From an uncultured cyanobacterium (GTDB lineage: Bacteria; Cyanobacteriota; Cyanobacteriia; Cyanobacteriales; Microcystaceae): a DNA stretch of 64,000 nt. The stretch is taken from positions 32,001-96,000 of the forward strand of contig CAWEDJ010000075.1 of assembly GCA_963807635.1 (NCBI GenBank), read 5' to 3'. Positions 6,578 to 34,400 of the stretch are shown in pieces. A program made the position numbers and the translations under genes. Each line of letters begins with the position of its first letter. Positions within the stretch are counted from its first letter, which is position 1. The notes under the pieces are model-generated. The model saw only the letters and a program-made list of their open reading frames with translations, did not search any database and was not told the DNA's origin.

Positions 6578-9184
6578 TCAGCATTGGGCCTCTTCATTTT
6601 TCAAAACTTTTCTATGGGAACTAATCCTTTGTCTTGTTTTCCAATCACGAGTTCCCACTAAGATATTTTTAATCTCATTATCATTATATTCTATCGAGTC
6701 ATCAGGTAAAACTTCGATAATTTCTATAAAAGTAGGATAGTTGATCTTTCCTGTTTGAGTAAAATGTGGGTTTATGGATGCAATATCGATCCCTAGTGAT
6801 ATTAATGCAATTGGAATTAATTCCCTAGTTTGTGAGCATATATTTCTATAATTTTCGACAATATTTTTAACACCTAAAGTATTGCTATTGCTCAACAATT
6901 CTTCCATTGATGATAAAAGTAAATATCTAGATAAAGAATTGTCTTGACAAGAAGAATGTAAACAATTTCTCCAATTATCTATATTTTTCGTCGAAGTAGA
7001 ACAAGCTGTCCAAAGCTGATCGTTCATTACATTTCCCACATTATCAGACCATTGAATCAAATCGTCACCTACACATTTTTGCAAAAGATTTTTGAATATT
7101 ACTATAGATTGCTGGAGATTCCGAAGCATAAATGATGTGCATATATCATCATTTGATTCTATGAATATTCGTGATCCAGAATAGGCATAAGAAACGTTAT
7201 CATGCATCTTTATATTTACATCACTTTTGATAATTTTCAGTAAAAATATGCGAAGTGATTCCCTTGAAAATCTATCATATTGATCATGGATAATACCATA
7301 GGCTAAATCCCATTGTTGTATCTCGATACATTGTTCAATGAATGACTCAACATCAACTATTGGTGCAAGTCCAGCCCATAGAAAAATAACAGTATTCCAC
7401 TTATCATCATTACGATGTTCAAATAAACAAAGGCGGTCTATCCTATGTCCAAATTCATCTCTTTGATTTCCTTGAAAAACACATTCAGCAACGAAGTATT
7501 CAGCTAGGCTCTTATGTACAAAGCTGTAAGTACCAGGCCCGATAATTAGCCCTGATCTCTCTCGAAGAGATGAAAGTACATCTTCTTCAGAAAAAGTTTT
7601 TCTCATTTTTGTAAGTAATTGCTTCATAATTTCTAATGCTGTCGATTCCTCTATTTGTTCTTCTTCTCGAAGAAACATTTTTAGAGCTAATCCTTGCATT
7701 AGTTGTCGTTTCTCTTCTAAAGAAAGTTCTATAGAAGTTGCATTGACTGTTCGACGACTATCCCATACACCTAACATGCCGTCAACATAACGTTGATAAA
7801 GTTTGGAACGTCCATTAGGAAGACTACCATCAAGGTGATGAACCGTTAATAATGTTGATAGTAATAATGGATTTCCTGTCAAAAAACCAAGTGTGGGATC
7901 GTTAAGCCAGTTTGAAGCAAGTTCAGAAGCATTAATTTCACGACTTTTATCCTGAAGCAATGGCGTATATTTATACCAACGCTGCATATAATCAATAATT
8001 CGCTCTTGATCAAAAGGTTCTATATTCCATAATCGAAAACTAGACTGTAATCGTTCTAGGTGATCTGTTGTTATGGGACGGGATGTTAATATAATCGGAC
8101 ACTTTTCTAGTACAAGGAGTAAGACATTGACCCAATCGCAAACTAAATCTCTGGCATCATGACGAATTTCATCAAAACCATCTAAAATAAAAATAATCTG
8201 TTTTTCTTCAATCCATTTCTTAATTCGTTCTGAAGTAATGTCTTCCGATAAATGCTGCCCAACCTCGGTTCTGATTATGTCTTGATAAGATGGCAAAAGC
8301 AAAGACTTATTTAATAAATTTCGTAATTCAACCCTTATACAAATTCCATCCCATTTAGGGCTTAAAGCTTCTCTTTGCAACCATTTTGCCCAAGTAGATT
8401 TTCCTGCACCAGATTGACCAGTAATAATTGTTTTGTTGTTATTAATCGCAAATAATCTAAAACTTTCGTCATTTGTTCCAACGACATTGCCCAGCTTTGA
8501 ATCATTTTTCTCTTGAATTTTTTCTTTAATCTCAGGATGTACAAAAAAGTTCTCAAATTTTCCCGAAGTTACGTTTTCTGACCTTAAGCCTGTTAAATCA
8601 AGCTCACGTAATTCAATTTTTTGAGTAAGTTTTTGTCGTACTATTTTTAGAGTTGAGTCCGCCAACTTTGACTATGACGTTGCCAATTCATCAACTTTTT
8701 CAAATATTGTTTTTAATTGAGTTGTAAGTTCATCAAAACGTCTATAACTCTCTGACCAAGCTTCACTTTCCCAATCTTTTACAACCGAAGGTATTTTACA
8801 GAGTAAAGTTGCTATATGAGGAAATAAAATTGCGTAAATTTCCGTTAATCCATCTTCAATCACTACTGTTGGCAGAGAGCGATCAACATAACAATCATCA
8901 AAAATATTTTGCCCGTTAAGAGAACCTTTAAACAACAAGTCAGGTGTTTGTGTAAGGGGTCGTAATTCTTCAACACAAGTCTCAATTAAGCGACGTTGTT
9001 TATCCTCAGATATTTTTTCTTGAGAAAGAAATGGTAAAATCGGTTCCACAACTTCTGCTATCACAGTTTCTACCTGATTTTTGATTTTTCGCTGTTTGAA
9101 AAAATCAAGATTCTTATATTTGGTAGAAATCACCTCCGACACGAGGTTTGTAATAATCCCAAAAATAAATTCTGCTAATCCCAT
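6578..9184 (-). pseudogene. NACHT/STAND NTPase with N-terminal helical domain, interrupted by one in-frame TAG
   Basis: Walker A GQSGAGKST, Walker B FILDGFDEI, LTSRP, NPLLL, FVHKSLAEYF. ORFs 8672-9184 and 6578-8665 are in the same frame, separated by TAG at 8672-8674. Confidence 0.8.
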
Positions 9185-10178: not shown

Positions 10179-11527
10179 ATGTCTTCCTCTGAATGTTTGC
10201 CAAACTTGCCCAGTCCCGAATTCGTCACTCTATGTCAGGCGCAGTCTCGGCTTGTTCAGCAGGGTTTTCAAGTGGATTGGTGTGGCGTTTATTTAACCCG
10301 CTCTCACTCTGAGGTAGAAGATTCTGAGTTAATTCCTATTGTGGTTTATCCCTCATCGGAGGCAACTTCCTATGCCAGTTCACCGTTAATCACCCTAACG
10401 AGACAAAAAGAAAATAATCCCCTAACGTTGCCTGGATTATTACTCTCAGTGCAGGATTCCGTTGAAACTTGGGATTCGGAGGAGATTCTGCCCTATTCAT
10501 CGGGGGAGCATCCCCAATTGGTTTTTCCGTTAGTTTACCAAGAAGTGATGTTGGGAGTATTGGTAACGGGACGGGAATCTGCGCCCTGGCAAGCAGAAGA
10601 GGTTGCTCAGTTAGAAAATATTGCCCATACCCTAGCGATCGCCTGTTTTTTAGACCAACAAAAAAGCTGGTATTTAACCCAATTAAGACAACAGCAAAGG
10701 CGACGGGAGTGGGAACGGGATCACTTGGATGATCTATTCCATCAATTACGAAATCCCCTGACGGCGTTGCGGACTTTTAGTAAATTATTGCTCAAACGGT
10801 TTTGGGGAGATGATAAAACCCAAGCGGTGATTGAAGGGATTGGGCGGGAAAGTTATCATCTTCAGGAATTACTTCGGCCTTCGAGGGAGATTTGGCTCGG
10901 AGTGATCAAGAAATTACGGTTCCGATTTGGGACACGGAAACGCTACCAGAAAATGTGTTGGCTCCTGTTTCGACTTTTTTATTACCCAGTTCTAGCCTTC
11001 CTTTGAGTCCCGTTGATTTAACGACGGTGCTTAGGCCGATTTTGTCTTGTGAAGAAGCGATCGCCCAGGAAAAACAGATTGAATTAGATGGGATTCTTCC
11101 TGATCATTTATCTCCGATTTTAGGAAATGCGGCGGCTCTTAGGGAAATTTTTAGTAATTTAATCGATAATGCCTTGAAATATACTCCATCAGGAGGCAAG
11201 GTTCGAGTGACAATGGGACTCATGGCTTCTTTTGAAACCGAACAATGGCAGGGAGTAGAAATTGCTGATACGGGCTACGGTATCCCCAAAAAAGACCAGG
11301 ATCACGTTTTTGAACGACATTATCGGGGAATTCAATCCGAGGGGGATATTCCAGGGACGGGATTAGGTCTGGCGATCGTCAAGGAATTAGTGGAAAAAAT
11401 GCGGGGAAAAATTGAAATTACTAGTCCCAATCATTTGAGTCTTGATGTCCAATATCCAGGGACGAGCGTTACCCTTTGGTTTTTGTTAGAGAATCAAAAA
11501 ATGGGAGTTGCACTAGATCAAGATTAG
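10179..11527 (+). CDS. GAF-domain sensor histidine kinase (Hik2/CSK-like), one frameshift near 10875
   Basis: GAF region, H-box FHQLRNPLTAL in the first ORF. NLIDNALKYT, DTGYGI, GTGLGL in the second, overlapping ORF. Confidence 0.85.
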
Positions 11528-11595: not shown

Positions 11596-12382
11596 GAGAG
11601 TTTCAAGCAAGTAATGCTAACTTCCAGTTGCGTAACAAATGAATACTACCATTGACTCTAAATCTGGCGAATAAAGCCATAGTCAGGTCAACCATTTCTA
11701 CTGAGCGAGACACAACTTTCGTTTTTCGATGAAAACGGGCAAACCAATGGCGATTATCCGAATTATTCCTTTCTATCCCTACTGTTTCGCTCTTCGTAAT
11801 TACATGAAACGCATCGGGATGCTCGTCTAGCAATTCTCTATAGGGCTTCCAATCATCTGTGCAGTAGACGGTTACTTTCCATGACAACAACCGTTTCAGC
11901 ATTTTTGCTAAGGTTTGACTATCACGACCTCCTAACTCCCAGTCGATAAGTCTCCCACTATTACGGTCATAAGCTTTCCACACCCACAATTTATTCTTTT
12001 TTTTTCTATGAAATGCCAGAGTTCGTCTAACTCAACAACTACGGCTATCCCAGGTTCTGGCTTTTCTTTGTTCAGCTTAGCGAAATCTCTAATCCAATTT
12101 AAGACGGCTTGAGCGGAAACATTGAGATGATTAGCGATGGCGTTCATCGACATCCCTCCTAAATAGAGTAAGACGGCATCGAGTTTCATCCAGAGGGGCT
12201 TACCTCGTTCTGTTGTTGGTTGAGTAAATTGGTAATTACAGGATTTACACTTATATCGCTGCTTTCCCTTGACAAAGCCACTTTTGATGATGTGCTGATG
12301 TTCGCATTTTGGACATTGGTTCATCATTCTGTTCCTTGAACTTTACTCTTTTACAGACTAGCATTATCTACTTGATACTCTC
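11596..12382 (-). mobile_element. IS1-family insertion sequence (InsA 11932-12327, InsB-like 11603-11989)
   Basis: CPKC...QRYKCKSC zinc finger, VELDELW, TDDW, IERNN. A9 slippery run at 11997-12005 joins the two frames. Imperfect 24-bp terminal IRs GAGAGTTTCAAGCAAGTAATGCTA and TAGCATTATCTACTTGATACTCTC. No target duplication seen. Confidence 0.9.
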
Positions 12383-13187: not shown

Positions 13188-13841
13188 ATGCCGATTGGTT
13201 TACCTGAATTTATTGAAAATCAAGAAAATCGTTGTCCTGTCATTTTTGTGTTAGATACGTCGGGATCTATGCAAGGCGCACCGATCGCGGCTTTGAATGA
13301 AGGCCTTAAAACCTTTAAGCAAGATGTTTTGCGCGATACCCAGGCGATGTTGAGTGTGGAAGCCAGCATTATTACCTTTGGGGATGGAGTTAAGCAAATT
13401 CAGGATTTTGTGACAATTGACCATTTTGAACCTCCTCAATTAAGGGCTGATGGTTTAACGCCAATGGGAGAAGCGATTAATCTTGCGTTGAATGTTTTAG
13501 AACAGCGTAAGGCAGTCTATAAAACTAACGGGATTCCCTATTATCGTCCTTGGGTCTTTTTAATTACAGATGGTGCGCCAACGGATGCTTGGCAAGGGGC
13601 GGCTCAAAATTTACGACAAGCCGAAGCAGAAAATCGTTTGTTGTTCTTTTCAGTAGCGGTTCAAGGGGCCAATATGGAAATTCTCAAACAAATTTCGCTG
13701 AGACCACCTGTTTTATTAAATGGTCTTGATTTTCGGGATTTATTTATCTGGCTCAGTAGTTCGATGAAGCGGGTTTCGAGTGGCAAGATTGGGGAGGCGA
13801 TCGCGTTACCGCCTGTAACTTGGGGTCAAATCACAACTTAA
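13188..13841 (+). CDS. TerY/YegL-type von Willebrand A protein
   Basis: RCPVIFVLDTSGSM MIDAS motif, GLTPMGEA, YYRPWVFLITDGAPTD, FIWLSSSM. Confidence 0.9.
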   Translation: MPIGLPEFIENQENRCPVIFVLDTSGSMQGAPIAALNEGLKTFKQDVLRDTQAMLSVEASIITFGDGVKQIQDFVTIDHFEPPQLRADGLTPMGEAINLALNVLEQRKAVYKTNGIPYYRPWVFLITDGAPTDAWQGAAQNLRQAEAENRLLFFSVAVQGANMEILKQISLRPPVLLNGLDFRDLFIWLSSSMKRVSSGKIGEAIALPPVTWGQITT

Positions 13842-13878
13842 ATTTTTAACCAAATATGATATTTTCTAGGAGGAAAGT

Positions 13879-14109
13879 ATGCGTAAACAAAGAATTGAAT
13901 ATTCTTCGCCGTTAGATGCGTTGATTGCAGTTACAAAGCGTCTCAGTGTTTATGAAAATAAATATCAATGGGATTCAGAAGATTTTTTTGATCGCTATAA
14001 CAAGGGATGTTTAACGGATGAGGTTGATTTTATCGAATGGTCTAATGATTACCGCCATTATCTAGCGTTACGTTTAGAATTAGCCAATTTATTAGCCCAT
14101 GCTGCATAA
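13879..14109 (+). CDS. putative antitoxin (TumA-like)
   Basis: 76 aa, YENKYQWDSEDFF...DFIEW pattern. Overlaps the downstream DUF6516-like gene. Confidence 0.65.
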   Translation: MRKQRIEYSSPLDALIAVTKRLSVYENKYQWDSEDFFDRYNKGCLTDEVDFIEWSNDYRHYLALRLELANLLAHAA

Positions 14110-14479
14110 AATTTTAGAGGATTATTTAAAAGATATTGAACTGGCTTTACTGGCTTTAGAGCAGGTTTATATTGAGCGTTATACTGAAGAAATATTAACA
14201 CCGACTAGAGTCAATTTACGACTTCGTATTCGTTGGAATTTGGGGTATTTACTGGAAATTAATGAAGCGGTTATTGTTGAAAATAATGTTTTGACATTCT
14301 TAGATTATCGTTATCACTGTCAAGATAGGCACAATATCCTAATTTTTCGTTATGATAGCACCCCTCATTTTCCTGATTTATCGAGCTTTCCCCATCATAA
14401 ACATTTGCCAAAAGATGTAATTGCTTGCGAAAAACCTGATCTTATTCAAGTGTTGCAGGAAGTTACAGTTTTAATTTAG
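14099..14479 (+). CDS. DUF6516/TumE-like toxin
   Basis: YRYHCQD...IFRYDSTPHFPDLSSFPHHKH motif. Confidence 0.75.
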   Translation: MLHKILEDYLKDIELALLALEQVYIERYTEEILTPTRVNLRLRIRWNLGYLLEINEAVIVENNVLTFLDYRYHCQDRHNILIFRYDSTPHFPDLSSFPHHKHLPKDVIACEKPDLIQVLQEVTVLI

Positions 14480-14541
14480 TTTTAAATCTAATTAAATTTA
14501 TCCCATTTTACAATATTTAGTTTATTTGATGATCAGAAAAA

Positions 14542-16608
14542 ATGACCAAATTGTTCTGTAGTAAAACGAATCAGGCAGTTACGTTAACGGTTTCTATTGC
14601 CCAGAGTGGGGAAGGAGAAGTTTGGCGGACGGATCGCTCTGGTCTGTTGGCGAAAATTTATCATGTTCCCGCAAGCAATGAGAAAGAAAAGTTAGCCCAG
14701 ATGAAAGATCGGGTGGCGAAGTTAGAGGTGATGGTGAAGCGGGTTCCGAAAGATCCGAATGCTCACCAGAATCATATTTCCTTTGCTTCACGCGATCGCT
14801 TCTCAAGAATAGCGGTGGGGAAGTGGTGGGCTTTCTGATGCCAGAGGTGGAGAATAGCCTGGATTTATTGAAGGTTTGTACGCCGAGAATGCGGAAATCT
14901 TTGGGGGTTGATGCGAATTGGTATTTTCTCCATGTGGTCGCCCGAAATATTGCAGGAATTATTCAAGCGATTCATGATGAGGGTTATGTTTTAGGGGATA
15001 TTAAGTTACAAAATATTCTGGTGAATAACCGCGCTTTACCGACGATTATTGATACGGATTCTTTTCAGGTTGTTGATCCTGTTCAAAATAAGGTTTATCG
15101 GTGTTTGGTTGCTTCGGAAGGGTTTACACCATCTGAGTTAATTGGTAAGAATATTGACTCGATTACTCAATCTGCGGTGCATGATCGTTTTCGGTTGGGC
15201 GTGGTTATTTATTATCTTTTGTTTGGTGGGGCCACCGTTTCGGGGAAGTTGGCAGGGTTCGGGTGATCCGCCTGAGCAAGTGGAGTTAATTCGTCGCGGT
15301 TTTTGGCCCTGTGCACCGAATAGTTTAATTCAGCCGAGTAATAATACGATTCCTTTGGATATCATTCATCCTGAGCTTCAACGGTGTTTTTTGCTGTGTT
15401 TTAATGATGGTCATTTCAATCCTTCTAAACGTCCGAGTGCGAGGGTTTGGTTGGAGGCGTTAGAGGTTGCGTTTAATGAGTTACAGTCTTGTGGAAAAGT
15501 TGATAGTCATTTTTATGGTTTGAGTTATGGGCGTTGTTATTGGTGCGATCGCGCTCAGAATTTAGGGGTTGATATTTTGCAAGGGAAGTTGATGGTGAAA
15601 CCCCAACCTATCAAGCCTCTATCTCAAACTAAACCCCAGCCTACTGTTGTTAAACCAATCGTCCCTAATCGGCCAATAACGTATCAACCACCACCACCAC
15701 AACTTTTTTTAACAAGAAGAAAGATTCTAGTCGGGATGGGTTTACTTGGGACTGGAGGAGCAATCACCTGGATAGGATCAAAAAAAACTCAATCCACATC
15801 TCTCCTGACTCCAACACCAAATCCAACACCAACACCAAATCCAACACCAACACCAAGTCCAAAGGCTACACCAATTATTATTAAATCATTAACAAATTAT
15901 ACAGAAGCTCTACCAGGGGGAGTCAAACTGAAAATGATCGCCATTCCTGCGGGTAAATTCCTAATGGGATCGCCCGATACCGATTCTGATGCCTCAGATG
16001 AAGAAAAGCCCCAACACCAAGTTGAATTAACTAGTTTTTGGATGGGGAAATATCCTGTGACTCAGGAGCAATATCAAGCCATAATGGGGATTAATCCGTC
16101 ATATTTTAAAGATAATCCCTATAACCCAGTGGAAAAAGTAACTTGGGATAATGCTCAGGAGTTCTGCCAAAGATTAAGTGAAAAAACAGGAAAAAAATAT
16201 CGTCTTCCCAGTGAAGCAGAGTGGGAATATGCCTGTCGAGCGGGAAGCCAAACCCGTTTTTATTTTGGAGATGATGAAAAGCAATTAGAAAAATATGCTT
16301 GGTATAAAGAAAATTCAGGTTCAAAAAACCACCCAGTCGGGCAGAAAAAGCCAAATAATTGGGGACTATTTGATATGAGTGGAAATGTGTGGGAGTGGTG
16401 TGACGATGTTTGGCATGAAAATCATGAAAATGCGCCAAAGGATGGAAGAAGTTGGAATAATAACTATTCTCAATCCCCTGTGAAACTAATGCGCGGTGGT
16501 TCTTGGGGAAGCGTTTCAAGGGGCTGTCGCTCGGCGGCGAGGGTCGGGATCGGTGCGGACTACTGGAGCAACAGCTACGGTTTTCGGCTTGCTCTTGGCT
16601 CTTTCTAG
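14542..16608 (+). CDS. YegI/TerY-associated Ser/Thr kinase - Zn ribbon - TM - FGE-sulfatase (CLec) fusion, two frameshifts near 14790 and 15230
   Basis: SGEGEVW, LAKIY, GDIKLQNILV, IDTDSFQ, HDRFRLG, CGK...CYWC, TM ILVGMGLLGTGGAITWI, then FLMGS, YPVTQEQY, RLPSEAEWEYACRAG, DMSGNVWEW, RGGSW, GFRL. Three overlapping ORFs join into one domain series. Confidence 0.85.
15808..15861 (+). repeat. tandem repeat encoding a Pro-Thr linker
   Basis: CCAACACCAAATCCAACACCAACACCAAAT... encodes TPTPNPTPTPNPTPTPSP. Confidence 0.85.
16492..16608 (+). other. candidate DGR variable region at the CLec C-terminus
   Basis: RGGSW...CRSA...GFRL segment. Hand count gives 14 A in 117 nt (12%) and 62% GC, against 33% A and 42% GC over 16381-16480. 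Many NNC/NNT codons at the variable positions. Confidence 0.6.
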
Positions 16609-16627
16609 TGCGATCGCCTGTTTCATT

Positions 16628-16750
16628 TATAGAGTCCATTTGGTATCTTTCTCACAACCTTTGCCCAGTATGGATTAGAGAGAATTAGCCAAAATGCCTG
16701 TAATTCTTATCAGCTAAGCGTTACAAGAGAGATACCAAATAGGTTCTATA
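16628..16750. mobile_element. 123-bp MITE-like element with 24-bp imperfect terminal IRs
   Basis: TATAGAGTCCATTTGGTATCTTTC ... GAGAGATACCAAATAGGTTCTATA. TA at both ends. Confidence 0.6.
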
Positions 16751-16778
16751 ACGAACACATATAATCAAAGGGAATAAA

Positions 16779-17594
16779 ATGAGCAACTATGTAACTAAAT
16801 CGATCAATGGTGATATATTTCAATATTATATCGATACATACGCAGGACTAAACCAAGCCGACACAAACCTAAAATTATTCTCAAATACACATGAGCGAAT
16901 ACTTTGCCATATATATTTTAATCCCAGCATAATCACCCCAGATATTAACGCAGATATTTTAGAAGGACATAAATCTACATTAGTTCTAACAGATTCATGG
17001 TTTTTATTTGAATCACTCAACTCATTAATAAAATTTTATGAATATATAAAACCAAAACCCTCATCTTCTTCTACACACAAAACCAGCTACGCGACGTATG
17101 ATGATGCTTATTTAGAACCTAAAAACTATAATTATACTAGAATACCGTATGGCCCACCCGAAATTTTTGATTATACATCAATAAAAAATGCTTACTTAGA
17201 ATATCTATTAGATTCATTGCTGGAAGAATACGAAAAAAATATGAGAAGCATATTCGATTTGCGAAAATCTCAAGATGAACTATTAGAATATTTTATGTAT
17301 CTTGAAAAATTTGCCTACCAATCACAGAGAGAATATCTTTTAACTGCATACAACCAAATATTTCAGAATTTCAATATCTTTCCACAATATCCTCTTTCGA
17401 TCTCATACGCGATAAGAAATCAATACGTTCATAATGGTGAGCCTGCTTCTACAGGATTTTCCACTCCCTTTCTGAAAACACAATTTATTAACGCACACCA
17501 CAAATTTGTCTTAAATTATTCTTTAATTGTTGTCACTGAATTAATTGAAAATGAAATTAACTTACGCAATAAAAACAATCTACCTAGTTGTTGA
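16779..17594 (+). CDS. AT-rich protein with HEPN-like RxxxxH motif
   Basis: YAIRNQYVHNG near the C-terminus of a helical protein. No HIP1 seen. Confidence 0.55.
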   Translation: MSNYVTKSINGDIFQYYIDTYAGLNQADTNLKLFSNTHERILCHIYFNPSIITPDINADILEGHKSTLVLTDSWFLFESLNSLIKFYEYIKPKPSSSSTHKTSYATYDDAYLEPKNYNYTRIPYGPPEIFDYTSIKNAYLEYLLDSLLEEYEKNMRSIFDLRKSQDELLEYFMYLEKFAYQSQREYLLTAYNQIFQNFNIFPQYPLSISYAIRNQYVHNGEPASTGFSTPFLKTQFINAHHKFVLNYSLIVVTELIENEINLRNKNNLPSC

Positions 17595-17671
17595 CCACTT
17601 CTAGTGCGATCACCATTACTGTCTTTATTCAAACGCATCTTATTTAATATTCGTTAAATCCGTAATATTTT

Positions 17672-17700
17672 GTGCGTTACGTTGTGCTAACATACCCTAC
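17672..17700 (-). repeat. GTAG-type REP-like palindrome
   Basis: Minus strand reads GTAGGGTATGTTAGCACAACGTAACGCAC. Confidence 0.5.
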
Positions 17701-17702
17701 AA

Positions 17703-18227
17703 CTACTTCAAAACTGTCGCCAAAATTAAATTTAAAGCAGATAAAAAAGTCGCAATAACAAAAACGGTTCCTGATAAAATTAATTGCTGACTTTTCCAAG
17801 CACTCAATATACTCAAACTGTTAATACTTTGCTCATACTGATCAATAAACAATAATTTATATCCATCTTCTGTTAATTCTAGACACTTTTCAACCTGTTC
17901 ATTAGGAGAAATAATTGAATCTTGTCCACCCTATTTTTGTAAAATACCAATCAAACTGATGCCCGCCGATGCAAACAACAATAATAAACTGAGTATTTTT
18001 AAAACCGAACAACTATAGCAAGGTAATGAATCTTGAATAAGAATACTTTGATCAGGTAAATCATCTGCAAACTTGATTAAAGCCGCACTAAAACCTGCTA
18101 CTGCACTTAATTGAGTATTAAGAATATTAACCCGACTATCAAGCACTTTAATCGACTCTTGAGCATCGGTAAAAATAAGCTCTATAATTTGAGTATAACT
18201 ATTATTTAGACGAGGCTCATCATTCAT
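17703..18227 (-). pseudogene. 3-TM membrane protein (Pycsar-effector-like topology) with one in-frame TAG
   Basis: The frame continues past TAG at 17931-17933 as GGQDSIISPNE...WKSQQLILSGTVFVIATFLSALNLILATVLK, with a stop at 17703. Confidence 0.6.
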
Positions 18228-18591
18228 GTCTGATATGAGTAATCTAGAAACATCCTCCCAGAATACTGCTCAATCTACACAAAGTAAACCACAACGCCCC
18301 AAAAAACCTGAAATTTATTTTTTAAGAACCTATCCGTTTAGAGATGATAGCTCTCACCATCATCCTCAAGAAGAGAATTATTGGAATGAAACCGTTGAAG
18401 CAGAAACATCCCAAGGTGAAAAACTTAATATAGAAGCTTATTTGTTGCGAGTTTATCCGACTACCTTCAATGAATATGATGCCTATATGGATATTCCCAT
18501 AAGCTACAATTCTGATATTAAATCTGATATTAAAAAAATACGATCATCACGTCTTGGGAAAACCTGGAACGTTGTTGCTGGGCCCCATTGA
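18226..18591 (+). CDS. hypothetical protein
   Basis: 121-aa ORF with an internal repeat, EIYFLRTYP / EAYLLRVYP. Confidence 0.5.
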   Translation: MSDMSNLETSSQNTAQSTQSKPQRPKKPEIYFLRTYPFRDDSSHHHPQEENYWNETVEAETSQGEKLNIEAYLLRVYPTTFNEYDAYMDIPISYNSDIKSDIKKIRSSRLGKTWNVVAGPH

Positions 18592-18744
18592 ATCTATCCC
18601 TATGGGCTATTTTCGTGGTGATTACGGTAACAATAATCCACCAGCTTGGATATTTGGACTTTGCTTGAGTCGAGAATAATAAATTTGATTATCATAGTCG
18701 CATTGCATCGGTTAAATTAACAAAACGAATTACCTTTTACTGAC

Positions 18745-25828: not shown

Positions 25829-26863
25829 CTATTGGACTGATCCCAGGCTTTTTTGTGATGTTGAGACAGGAATATTTTTAACTAAGCGAAAACCAATGTG
25901 CGATGTTCCCGTATTTGTTTCTTCCGCTTCCCTTGCGGCGGGACGATAACGACTACAATAATTTTTAGCACAGAGAAAGGAACCCCCTTTGATAACGTGC
26001 TTGGCAACCCCTGGTTCCCTGGGATCAAGACTGTCTGATGGATTTTCCACTAATGGATCGGTTTTTCCTGATTTATTTTCATGGCTTACTTGATACCAAT
26101 CCTTTGTCCATTCCCAAACATTACCTGTCATATCATAAAGCCCATAGCCGTTAGCAGGAAAAGACCCGACTTTAGCAGTTCCTAAAAATTCATCTTCTTC
26201 CGTATTAAAAAAAGGAAATACCCCCTGCCAGGTATTGGCCTTTTTAGCGGAATATTGATTGCCCCAGCTATAGGTCATTTTAGATAAGCCTCCTCGTGCG
26301 GCGTATTCCCATTGGGCTTCGCTGGGTAAGGATTTTCCAGCCCATTTTGCATAACTCTCGGCATCTTCAAAGGCGATTTGTACGACGGGATGATTTTCTT
26401 TACCGACAATAGAACTGTTTCGCCCCTGGGGATGTTGCCAGTCTGCTCCCTGTACCCAATGCCACCAACTAAGCGGTTCAATTTCGGTGACTCCTGCTTC
26501 GGGAGGAATGAAAACGAGGGAACCAGGCTGACGTTCTTCGGGTTTTAGGGTTGGAAATTCTTCGACGGAAAGGGGACGTTCAGCGACAGTTTTGTAACCT
26601 GTTTCTGACACAAATTGAGCGAATTGGGCGTTAGTGACTTCGTGGCGGTCTATACAAAAATCCCTTACTTTGACTTGATTGACACTTTTTTCTTCTGCAT
26701 AAAATTCATCGGAACCCATCCGAAAAGTTCCCTCCTGAATGGCTGCCATATTGTCAGGACAGGTAAGAGTTTCTGCGAATGCCTGGGGATTAACAATCCA
26801 AGAAGTTGTAAAAACAAGAAGGGCGATCGCGGTAATTAGGATTAATTTAAAATTAGCAATCAT
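25829..26863 (-). CDS. exported formylglycine-generating enzyme family protein (SUMF1)
   Basis: Signal peptide, FRMGS, LPSEAQWEYAARGG, DMTGNVWEW, KGGSFLCAKNYCSRYRPAAR. Confidence 0.9.
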   Translation of the reverse strand: MIANFKLILITAIALLVFTTSWIVNPQAFAETLTCPDNMAAIQEGTFRMGSDEFYAEEKSVNQVKVRDFCIDRHEVTNAQFAQFVSETGYKTVAERPLSVEEFPTLKPEERQPGSLVFIPPEAGVTEIEPLSWWHWVQGADWQHPQGRNSSIVGKENHPVVQIAFEDAESYAKWAGKSLPSEAQWEYAARGGLSKMTYSWGNQYSAKKANTWQGVFPFFNTEEDEFLGTAKVGSFPANGYGLYDMTGNVWEWTKDWYQVSHENKSGKTDPLVENPSDSLDPREPGVAKHVIKGGSFLCAKNYCSRYRPAAREAEETNTGTSHIGFRLVKNIPVSTSQKSLGSVQ

Positions 26864-31480: not shown

Positions 31481-34400
31481 CTAACTACCGCCAATTCTTG
31501 CTACATCTCGCGCATTCTCCTCAAACGCCGCATTAAGGGCATCATCCCCACTTAAACCAGCCTCCAACGCATTCTTAATCGCCTGGAGAACCCGCTTATA
31601 ATCCTTCGGCATCACCTTCACAAACTTAGGAATCATCGACTCCCAATCCGCCAGAACAGCCTGAGCTTTTTCACTCTGGGTATAGGTGACATGGCTTTGA
31701 ATCAGATCATAAAGATCCTGGATTTCTTCGGGGTCTTCCAAAGATTCCAAACCCACCATCGACTGATTACAACGAGTCGCAAAATCTCCCGACTCATCGA
31801 GGATATAGGCCACACCGCCACTCATCCCCGCCGCAAAATTACGACCCGTCAAGCCAAGGACAACAACCTTACCGCCCGTCATGTATTCGCAACCGTGATC
31901 ACCGACAGCTTCCACCACCGTATTGACCCCCGAATTACGAACCCCAAAACGTTCGCCCGCCATCCCTGCAATATAGGCCTCACCACTGGTTGCACCGTAT
32001 AACGCCACATTGCCAATGATGATATTTTCCGACGCGGCAAAAGTGGAACCCACAGGCGGATAAACAATCAACTTACCACCGCTTAAACCCTTGCCCAGAT
32101 AGTCGTTGGCATCGCCTTCTAGTTCGAGGGTGACACCTTTCGGCACAAAGGCTCCAAAACTTTGACCCGCACTGCCTTGGAAGTGCAGATGGATGGTGTC
32201 TTCGGGTAAGCCTTCCCAGTTACGTTTGGTGATTTCATTGCCGACAATAGTTCCTACCACGCGGTTAATGTTTTTGATGGGTAAAGTGGCTTTGACTTTT
32301 TCACCCTTTTCGATCGCAGGTTTACAGAGATCTAATAACGTGGTGATGTCCAAAGACTTCTCTAAACCATGATCCTGAGCCATTTGGCAATAACGACCGA
32401 CTTCGGCCAACTTCGGGCTGGTACAGAATGGCCGAGAGATCAATCCCCTTGGCTTTCCAATGGTCAACGGCCTTTTTCGGCTCCAGAATATCGGTGCGAC
32501 CGACCATTTCGGTAAGCGTGCGGAAACCCAATTGGGCCATGATTTCTCGCATCTCTGTGGCGATAAAAGTCATAAAATTCACCGCATGGGCAGGATCGCC
32601 TGTGAATTTAGCCCGTAATTCGGGGTTTTGAGTGGCAATTCCTACTGGACAGGTATTGAGATGACAAACCCGCATCATAATACAACCGAGAGAAACTAGG
32701 GGAGCCGTCGAAAAACCAAATTCCTCTGCACCGAGTAAGGCCCCGATGATCACATCCCGTCCCGTTTTCATTTGACCATCGGTTTCGACTACAATCCGCG
32801 ATCGCAGATTATTGAGAACGAGGGTTTGATGGGTTTCAGCCAGTCCCAATTCCCAGGGTAATCCTGCGTGTTTAATCGAAGTTTGGGGAGAAGCTCCAGT
32901 TCCACCGTCATAGCCTGAAATTAAGACCACATCCGCATGGGCTTTGGCTACACCCGTCGCGATCGTTCCCACACCGACTTCAGAAACCAATTTGACGTTA
33001 ATGCGAGCCGCACGATTGGCATTTTTCAGATCATGAATCAACTCGGCTAAATCTTCAATGGAATAAATATCGTGGTGGGGCGGGGGCGAAATTAAACCCA
33101 CACCAGGGAGTCGAGTGGCGCACCTTGGCAATCCAGGGATAGACTTTTTTGCCTGGTAATTGACCGCCTTCCCCTGGTTTCGCGCCCTGGGCCATTTTGA
33201 TTTGGATTTCCTGGGCTTGGAGAGATACAGACTGGTTACCCCAAAGCGTCCCGATGCGACTTGTTTAATGGCACTATTTTTCGAGTCGCCCTGTTCATTT
33301 GTCCAGGTATAACGTTCAGGATCTTCACCCCCTTCGCCTGTGTTGGATTTACCACCGATTCGATTCATCGCGATCGCCAAGGATTCGTGGGCTTCCTTGG
33401 AAATAGACCCGTAACTCATGGCTCCCGTTTTAAAACGTTTCATGATCGCTTCAATGGGTTCCACTTCTTCGAGAGGAATGGGTTCCCGTTGCTTGAAGTC
33501 TAGTAAACCGCGCAGGGTATAGAATTTTTTGTCCTGTTCATTCACCAGCTTGGCATACTCTTTATAAACCGCGTAATTGCCTTCTCGCACCGCTTTTTGC
33601 AGATTATGGATAGTCTGGGGATTGAAAAGATGTTCTTCTCCATCCTTACGCCACTGATATTCACCGCCCACATCCAGGGACTGAATATCCCCCAAATGGT
33701 CGGGAAAAGCGTGTTGATGACGTAATACCGCTTCTTTGGTCAGAATATCAATGTCTGAACCCGCAATGCGCGATGCTGTCCAGGTAAAATATTTATCAAT
33801 CACGGATTTATTTAAACCGATCGCCTCAAAAATTTGTGCGCCGCGATAACTTTGGATAGTAGAAATCCCAATTTTAGAGGCAACTTTAATCACGCCCTTG
33901 GTTGCCGCTTTGATGTAATTTTTACAAGCCGTATAATAATCTACGCCTGGCAATAAACCATCGGCAATCATGCCCTCAAAGGTTTCAAACACCATATAGG
34001 GATTGATCGCACCGCAACCATAGCCAATCAAGACAGCATGGTGATGAACTTCACGGGGTTCGCCTGATTCTAAAACCAGACCAACACGGGTACGAGTTCC
34101 AACCCGAATTAAATGGTGATGTAAGCCCGAAACTGCGAGTAAAGCAGGAATAGCCGCTTTGTCCGCACTCACTCCTCGGTCAGACAGAATGATAATATTC
34201 ATGCCCTCCGCGATCGCCTGATTAGCCTGACTGCATAGATCATCAATAACCGATTCCAAACCCTGACTACCTTGCTTGGGATCGAATAAAATTGGCAAGG
34301 TAATTGATTTAAATTCTCCCCCTTTACTATCAGCGTTGCCCCCCTTATCAAGGGGGGTTAGGGGGGATCCCAACGCTTTCAATTTAGCCAACTCTTCATT

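Follow-up and report, generated by a model that had tools for sequence, protein, structure and literature searches.

A TerY-P kinase family with lectin-fold tips of the diversity-generating retroelement type in Microcystaceae, and a probably frozen copy in an uncultured cyanobacterium

Can a bacterial signalling kinase carry a lectin-fold tip that has been written by a retroelement, and does such a tip still vary where the retroelement is missing? The question is raised by a locus in a 64,000-nt stretch of DNA from an uncultured member of the Microcystaceae (positions 32,001 to 96,000 of contig CAWEDJ010000075.1, assembly GCA_963807635.1, here G000), which we call the window. In this locus a gene for a TerY/YegL-type vWA protein is followed by a toxin–antitoxin (TA) pair and by a YegI-type Ser/Thr kinase, which ends in an FGE-sulfatase domain of the C-type-lectin fold (CLec) with a variable repeat (VR) of the kind made by diversity-generating retroelements (DGRs). 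The initial annotation had proposed a receptor kinase with a diversifiable binding domain, wired into a TerY-type conflict module, possibly with toxin effectors nearby. The analysis presented here shifts the weight from the window copy to its relatives: the FGE-bearing kinase family, rather than the window copy, is the real finding. We consider it reasonably probable that the family forms an accessory TerY-P module whose kinase bears a DGR-written lectin-fold tip, the module being predicted to act as a receptor kinase with an exchangeable binding site, and that the window copy itself is probably not diversifying.

Features that mark a remote DGR target, namely a hypervariable tip, adenine-only matches to templates and a hairpin at the 3′ end, are present in the Microcystis orthologues, as had been suspected for the kinase. 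Among the best 120 of 936 matches, 103 Microcystis proteins were 86–100% identical in the kinase, and 84 of them had complete VRs, 62 of which were distinct, in a set of 90%-identity cluster representatives that inflates the apparent diversity and in which 13 proteins share one VR. Over 75 aligned proteins the mean column entropy rose from 0.14 bits in the kinase through 0.37 in the FGE core to 1.96 in the VR. The residues K, E, Q, M and W, which AAY mutagenesis cannot make, accounted for 12 of 1172 VR residues versus 474 of 1940 residues at variable FGE-core columns. Templates were found by pattern in 4 of 17 Microcystis genomes, Avd in 5 and the kinase in 11. When 12 kinase VRs were compared with the template repeats (TRs) of the genus, two differed at adenines only (VR2 of G438 from the G445 TR at 17/30 A and 0/84 non-A positions; the G442 VR from the G015 TR at 15/32 A and 0/82 non-A positions), and two more differed at 1/84 non-A positions and by codon gaps, as has been described for DGRs; all of these matches are cross-genome. 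A pyrimidine tract and GC hairpin follow the last VR at all seven Microcystis kinase loci read and also in G487, and the kinases hold one to five CLec copies. A 1672-codon TerY-P kinase of G447 (L172:4797-9812) has five CLec domains in tandem, no two of them with the same VR.

TerY-P triads occur widely among cyanobacteria, with sequences that diverge directly after the Zn ribbon: the kinase–FGE fusion occurred in two of 46 surveyed TerY-P loci, the remaining tails being WD40, TPR, PQQ, GUN4 or transmembrane (TM) segments. A class survey of 401 genomes, which scored three candidates per genome and therefore gives lower bounds, returned single-frame kinase–FGE rows from G383, G404 and G000. By genus, the FGE-type kinase was present in 11 of 17 Microcystis genomes (one as a contig-end fragment), in 5 of 14 genomes of genus g18 and in two of the six genomes of the window's genus. 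In a tree of 37 kinase domains every FGE-bearing TerY-P kinase fell into one Microcystaceae clade (support 100/96). The sister of the window kinase in this tree is a TPR-tailed kinase of G004, indicating that tails swap after the Zn ribbon. The tail-swap point has a HIP1-like site 25 nt ahead of it, and such sites also bound the HEPN cassette described below on either side; HIP1-driven swapping was considered and is not claimed, the genome having 1.2 HIP1 sites per kb. The window's genus retains an older, dispersed set of vWA, PP2C and kinase-TPR genes, which makes the window locus a second, accessory copy. At the orthologous loci of Microcystis, PP2C is encoded in the same operon.

Besides the inflated diversity and the shared VR, several observations weigh against our reading. 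Compared with the TR of its own genome, the kinase VR of G445 differed at 6/84 non-A positions with six codon gaps and that of G015 at 16/82 non-A positions (TR recovery in G436, G445 and G446 being incomplete); no kinase VR matches an own-genome template by adenines only, so current DGR activity on the gene is shown nowhere. The FGE cores group by genus and not by kinase, mostly with weak support (row G015_remote2, out of frame, was ignored), and gene conversion from other DGR targets could be the source of the tips. The TM helix is missing from 24 of 117 kinase homologues, and the compartment in which sensing would take place is thus not fixed. Most cyanobacterial triads, with WD40, TPR, PQQ, GUN4 or TM-only tails, sit among housekeeping genes, a context that, like these tail types, fits general stress signalling. 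Finally, PADLOC gave no TerY-P model match for the window locus. Several of these points feed the alternative that survives best, in which CLec is just one of many interchangeable kinase tails, the VR was copied from paralogous DGR targets, the triad serves ordinary stress signalling without TerY-specific sensing and the TA genes are selfish passengers. Tails do vary freely after the Zn ribbon, even between 95%-identical kinases, FGE cores do cluster with local targets of their genus, tandem CLec copies together with gain and loss of the TM helix indicate frequent recombination, and the slot in front of the kinase is sometimes empty in natural populations. Nevertheless, the fusion has been maintained in one clade across three genera, kinase and FGE core are conserved, and the terminal VR retains its 3′ hairpin at each of the seven Microcystis loci read; we therefore hold this alternative to be unlikely, if still credible.

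How far does the window copy share in these properties? All parts listed by the initial annotation (vWA, TA pair, kinase with Zn ribbon, TM helix, PT linker and FGE, a HEPN-motif gene and a minus-strand 3-TM gene) lie where it had placed them (Table 1), and its TerY-type module stands as far as the vWA and kinase families are concerned, the phosphatase being absent from the locus. The vWA protein is 54% identical to E. coli YegL over 180 aa, 74% to the Microcystis-type G015 vWA and 69% to its own paralogue on C41. With its frame breaks read through as X, the kinase matches YegI with 27% identity over 340 aa (E 2e-32), and the non-canonical catalytic loop of YegI (GD..QN), the DxD, the K and the Cys/His ribbon all align. 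The whole kinase-to-FGE gene extends over 14542-16608 in three frames, in the order kinase, CxxxxxxH..CxxC Zn ribbon, hydrophobic helix, PT linker and FGE-sulfatase, and its homology to the G004 gene stops at 15578. Its CLec domain has its best PDB sequence match in TvpA, a DGR variable protein of Treponema denticola (2y3c), which is presumably a stand-alone lipoprotein, unlike the kinase fusion of the window. The only TerY-type PP2C match of the genome (G000:C75:6718-7515, 34% identical to PphC) lies ~38 kb upstream, outside the window, and none was found in the locus; as a derivative with two genes, the window copy falls short of a full TerY-P triad. Just before the predicted helix, 87 of 117 homologues have S/T-R-R-x-x-L, which we take to resemble a twin-arginine motif.

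Table 1 Features of the TerY-type locus (positions in the window)
Feature	Position	Strand	Remarks
TerY/YegL-type vWA protein, MIDAS DTSGS	13188..13841	+	PF00092; predicted kinase partner, possible substrate
TumA antitoxin in variable slot 5′ of kinase	13879..14109	+	NF045776 131 bits (cut-off 100); PDC-M44A
TumE (DUF6516) toxin	14099..14479	+	NF045777 196 bits (cut-off 90); PF20126
YegI-type Ser/Thr kinase (AKIY, LGDIKLQN, DTD) and Zn ribbon	14542..15578	+	two single-base frame breaks
RRK followed by one hydrophobic helix	15715..15780	+	predicted single TM; Kyte-Doolittle 1.44
Pro/Thr linker	15805..15870	+	read from sequence
FGE-sulfatase/CLec domain	15931..16608	+	PF03781 E 4e-53; best PDB match TvpA 2y3c E 2.7e-34
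DGR-type VR, probably orphan	16492..16608	+	GC 62% vs 41% in FGE core
HIP1-containing 16-bp repeat at kinase stop	16603..16618	+	second copy, 1 mismatch, at 17599-17614
123-bp MITE-like element, terminal inverted repeats	16628..16750		99% copy at G000:C16:33739
271-aa protein, GC 30%, likely HEPN RNase (predicted), accessory	16779..17594	+	RNQYVH at residues 213-218
3-TM protein, PycTM-like (weak)	17700..18227	-	in-frame TAG at 17931-17933; intact in G004
Protein of unknown family, head-to-head with 3-TM gene	18226..18679	+	+1 break at GGCC (~18585) leaves 121 aa

The frame of the window kinase is broken twice, by -1 at ~14790 and by +1 at ~15228. The G004 orthologue (95% nucleotide identity) has an open frame and a one-base difference at each break, and we compared the contigs of four public runs, none of which is clearly the source sample (the best contains 0.37 of the words). 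The first break was corrected in the contigs of all four runs at full local depth and the second, likewise in all four, at part or all of the depth, which restores the frame; one contig of run X4 spans 15528-16231 and bridges the kinase tail to FGE, and the two parts are thus one gene, as had been assumed. As a control, 148 G004 genes were tested, of which 96 aligned at ≥90%; 38 of these 96 had a net frameshift relative to G004 in the window assembly, and 21 of 52 frameshift events fell at GGCC, versus a background of 2.5%. Both kinase breaks lie at GGCC in G004. Because of this error pattern and because independent contigs restore the frame, both breaks are very likely assembly errors; programmed frameshifting was rejected since the breaks match the same GGCC pattern. 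The competing view is that of a decaying pseudogene island, with a truly frameshifted kinase, a lost phosphatase and broken neighbours. To it one may count, besides the two kinase frameshifts, the TAG in the 3-TM gene, the broken last open reading frame (ORF), the remnant of an HNH gene, the MITE-like element and an upstream IS1 transposase; the G004 copy of the locus is also split across contig ends, and the corrections come from runs none of which is clearly the source. Against it stand the frequency of frameshifts among the control genes, their concentration at GGCC, the frame restored in independent contigs, and the genomes G404 and G489, in which vWA, slot, kinase and FGE are intact, also without PP2C. 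We regard decay of the island as improbable.

In the window, the last 117 bases of the gene were compared with the nearest template, that of a complete DGR in the congener G003 (G003:C19). The VR differed at 21/30 A and 10/72 non-A positions (Fisher p 6e-8, a contrast to which protein constraint contributes), versus 0/72 non-A mismatches for the two targets of G003 itself. Complete DGRs are present in the congeners G001 and G003. The initial annotation had pointed to a DGR reverse transcriptase (RT) and TR to be located in the genome; in the G000 assembly, which is 93.7% complete, no DGR RT was found (the RT matches, at two loci, belong to group II introns), the best Avd score was 24.5 bits, below the cut-off of 80, and no TR was found by a whole-assembly A-wildcard scan, a pattern search or blastn. 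In the window's genus, most confirmed targets have a stop codon followed by a pyrimidine tract and a GC hairpin. This element, which may alternatively be a terminator, is missing after the window kinase, where a HIP1 site and the 123-bp MITE-like element occupy the site expected for it; the pair of 16-bp HIP1-type repeats brackets the MITE-like element and the HEPN-like gene. Thus, with RT, Avd and TR missing and the 3′ cis element lost, the window copy itself does not qualify, by these tests, as an active remote DGR target. The predicted hypervariability is shown in the Microcystis orthologues rather than in this copy: contigs of X1 and X3, both from one study, cover 16356-16609 with two differences in 254 nt. 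We conclude that the window copy is probably an orphan DGR target, frozen and no longer diversifying. That it is still the active remote target of a DGR outside the assembly or on an unbinned mobile element appears very improbable, since the incompleteness of the assembly, the complete DGRs of the congeners with the G003 template closest to the window VR, and the fact that an inverted repeat is not universal among DGRs (34% in the accessible part of PMC5758913) are set against a hairpin that follows the congener targets and not the window kinase, the near-identical VR in the X1 and X3 contigs, the absence of matches in metagenome contigs to an exact degenerate pattern for the window VR family (a strict pattern and hence weak evidence), and the divergent types of all other VRs in G000.

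The initial annotation had further asked whether its toxin-like neighbours recur with the kinase. A gap of >300 bp precedes the kinase at all 13 loci of the FGE clade; among the other rows the gap could be measured in 44 and exceeded this length in 1 (9 rows had no measurable gap, and duplicates account for at least two of the rows). Genes of TA families fill this slot at 12 of the 13 loci, with a complete pair at seven, and the toxins belong to five families (HepT, BrnT, PIN, YoeB and TumE); eight of the 13 loci are from Microcystis and not independent. In the window the adjacent TumA and TumE genes both score above the NCBIfam curated cut-offs. The contigs of X1 and X3 join the end of the vWA gene to the start of the kinase gene with no TA genes between, and public-run contigs indicate that in natural populations the slot may lack genes altogether or contain a different insert. 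TumAE was not found beside TerY genes at any of the five other TumAE loci read, and G004 has an HNH gene where the window copy has the likely HEPN gene; together with the empty slot in X1 and X3, this led us to reject TumAE and the HEPN gene as fixed members of the locus. The region of the HEPN gene was almost without cover in the four public runs, which does not show its absence there. Hence TA genes in the slot do recur with the kinase clade, and the specific DUF6516 and HEPN neighbours do not: what recurs is the slot, not a particular toxin. The locus is a conflict hotspot to which no particular toxin is tied, and for its TA and HEPN genes the role of hotspot passengers is more likely than that of wired effectors. 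Of the HNH gene, which is intact in G004, the window keeps a short piece of the 3′ end at ~17625-17640.

The 271-aa protein was assigned from sequence and a structure model. Two homologues came from a word-indexed search and 13 from a full profile search, and the alignment left out a 4941-aa repeat match and a 69-aa fragment. R213, N214, Y216 and H218 were invariant in 11 homologues, so that the RxxxxH motif is present. With the model (pLDDT 83), a structure search placed eight HEPN-fold chains in the top 14 rows, below a designed filament in the top row; five are titled HEPN or Csm6 and three we take to be HEPN. HEPN chains gave Z 5.2-6.2 and rmsd 3.8-4.7 over 117-128 aligned residues, below the bar of the tool for helical folds, and Foldseek found no match with the model. 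For the family, the Atlas gave Abi/HEPN leads, and HEPN_Apea matched weakly in 2 of 11. A HEPN RNase is the likely, predicted identity.

How might the vWA protein and the kinase work together? A complex model of the G015 vWA protein with the intact kinase domain of the same genome scored 0.86, versus 0.01 for the best control; the score mark, which 116 of 157 solved pairs and 2 of 215 mismatched ones attain, is rough here, as our own alignments were used. Runs agreed in ≥98% of contacts, with a partner pLDDT of at least 81, and a sequence search found no solved relative of either family. The vWA protein is predicted to dock on the C-lobe of the kinase. In the model interface, D144, K146 and E148 of the kinase catalytic loop would face vWA residues 196-204, which include Ser198, conserved in 35 of 37 sequences and a candidate phospho-acceptor. 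The interface is no more conserved than the average (0.78 vs 0.75 and 0.66 vs 0.65). On the reading that we favour, the CLec tip would bind a ligand, most likely a foreign protein of a phage or competitor, and the kinase would thereby be clustered or released; it would autophosphorylate and then phosphorylate the bound vWA protein, with Ser198 as the candidate site. PP2C would reset the switch, in cis in Microcystis and in trans in the window genome. A passing DGR would rewrite the tip, and the allele would persist after loss of the DGR. The family may thus act as an adaptable sensor, and analogy and the toxin-rich context suggest that the module may serve in defence. Much bolder, and in our view doubtful, is the idea that Microcystaceae TerY-P is an adaptive immune receptor, in which a mobile DGR would rewrite one to five CLec tips, a phage protein would trigger vWA phosphorylation, release of an RNase toxin from the slot and abortive infection, and phages would answer with CLec decoys. 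In this connection we observed 53 viral loci in IMG/VR (L258-L310) with CLec genes 46-79% like the Microcystis kinase CLec, often in tandem and with VR-like tips; no HIP1 site, TerY kinase, DGR RT or Avd was found within the DNA examined. It is possible that these are captured decoys.

Both ingredients of this module are known. The TerY-P triad, according to the accessible parts of the sources, consists of the TerY vWA protein, a PP2C phosphatase and a Ser/Thr kinase with Zn ribbon, corresponding to YegL, PphC and YegI of E. coli (PMC10542128, PMC4978471, PMC7699616, bioRxiv 10.1101/819920), and has been reported to be active against T7-like phages (PMC7699616, likewise accessible in part). 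The window locus shares its gene order, YegL-like vWA, YegI-like kinase motifs and Zn ribbon, and in E. coli K-12 yegJ is inserted just before the kinase as the slot genes are here. It differs by the lack of PP2C, by the TA cassettes in the slot and by a kinase ending in a CLec domain with a DGR-type VR, whereas the anti-phage version is reported, in the text available, with an OB-fold. Kinases with a C-terminal CLec and VR, remote from the RT, are also described in the accessible part of PMC7517822, and its supplement lists AKE64189.1 (P0004), which is the TerY-P kinase of G015, as a remote variable protein, putatively non-cytoplasmic. However, they are taken there for Hanks-type signalling kinases, with vWA only as a VWA-CoxE domain; a TerY-P operon, a TA slot or within-genus VR diversity of an orthologue is not described in those parts, and the window copy, unlike theirs, has no TR. 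The DGR antigen sensors of Dore 2024 (PMC10907252) likewise have CLec VRs on predicted conflict systems, for which the available text proposes adaptive sensing, but these are STAND/NACHT and MoxR-vWA ternary systems, and 'TerY' does not occur in that text. The TumA–TumE genes of the window have the antitoxin–toxin order and scores above the curated cut-offs expected for the TumE-TumA pair in the accessible part of Durairaj 2023 (PMC10584680); they differ in sitting inside a TerY operon, a link absent from the five other loci. In the literature searched, where the one paper with both words concerns unrelated islands, no TerY–DGR link was found, which subscription papers or other supplements may describe; the union of the two, the TA slot and the predicted vWA–kinase complex were not found there either.

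Two questions, the signal to which TerY-P responds and the ligands of cyanobacterial DGR targets, meet in one small operon, whose synteny is conserved among the genomes of Microcystis, a major bloom-former. The near-constant kinase carries dozens of natural tip alleles, which makes VR-swap, phage-challenge and phosphorylation tests direct. For TerY-P, in which sequence searches turned up no solved member, the predicted vWA–kinase interface offers an initial structural hypothesis. From the window copy itself one learns little more than that tips outlast the loss of the retroelement.

Downstream of the HEPN-like gene, the 3-TM gene was matched to PycTM by PADLOC in its G004 copy (E 9e-5), and the Atlas gave PF18967 on 10% of one cluster; its TAG is a substitution and may be a real mutation. 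The head-to-head pair of this gene and its neighbour (window 17700-18679) recurs in G014 (L032:6515-7523) beside a VirD4-like gene, away from TerY genes, and is therefore taken as a separate mobile pair. Upstream of the vWA gene, at a distance of ~860 bp, lies the IS1-family transposase (11603-12327, minus strand). Two other window genes are split: a histidine kinase in two frames (10179-11527, plus strand), which fits the indel errors of the assembly, and a NACHT-type gene (6581-9184, minus strand), divided into a 170-aa NNH1 piece (PF22733, under the cut-off) and a 697-codon frame, probably by another assembly break. A separate FGE-family gene at ~25880-26392 (minus strand) has a Cys-containing core, FLCAKNYCSRYR, and is not VR-like. 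Outside the window there are two copies of a twintron-like arrangement (G000:C75:1886-5454 and C46:15474-19658), in which one intron ORF is divided into two parts by a group II intron RT/HNH ORF. A Pkn2-type kinase-FGE cluster with divergent VR-like ends (G000:C77:11000-32000) also holds AAA ATPase, vWA, FHA and PP2C-like genes, an AIPR-like ORF and a TA pair, gene labels that we in part presume, and looks like a separate conflict locus. An isolated 610-bp fragment at G000:C31:17893-18502 is 92% identical to the window kinase.

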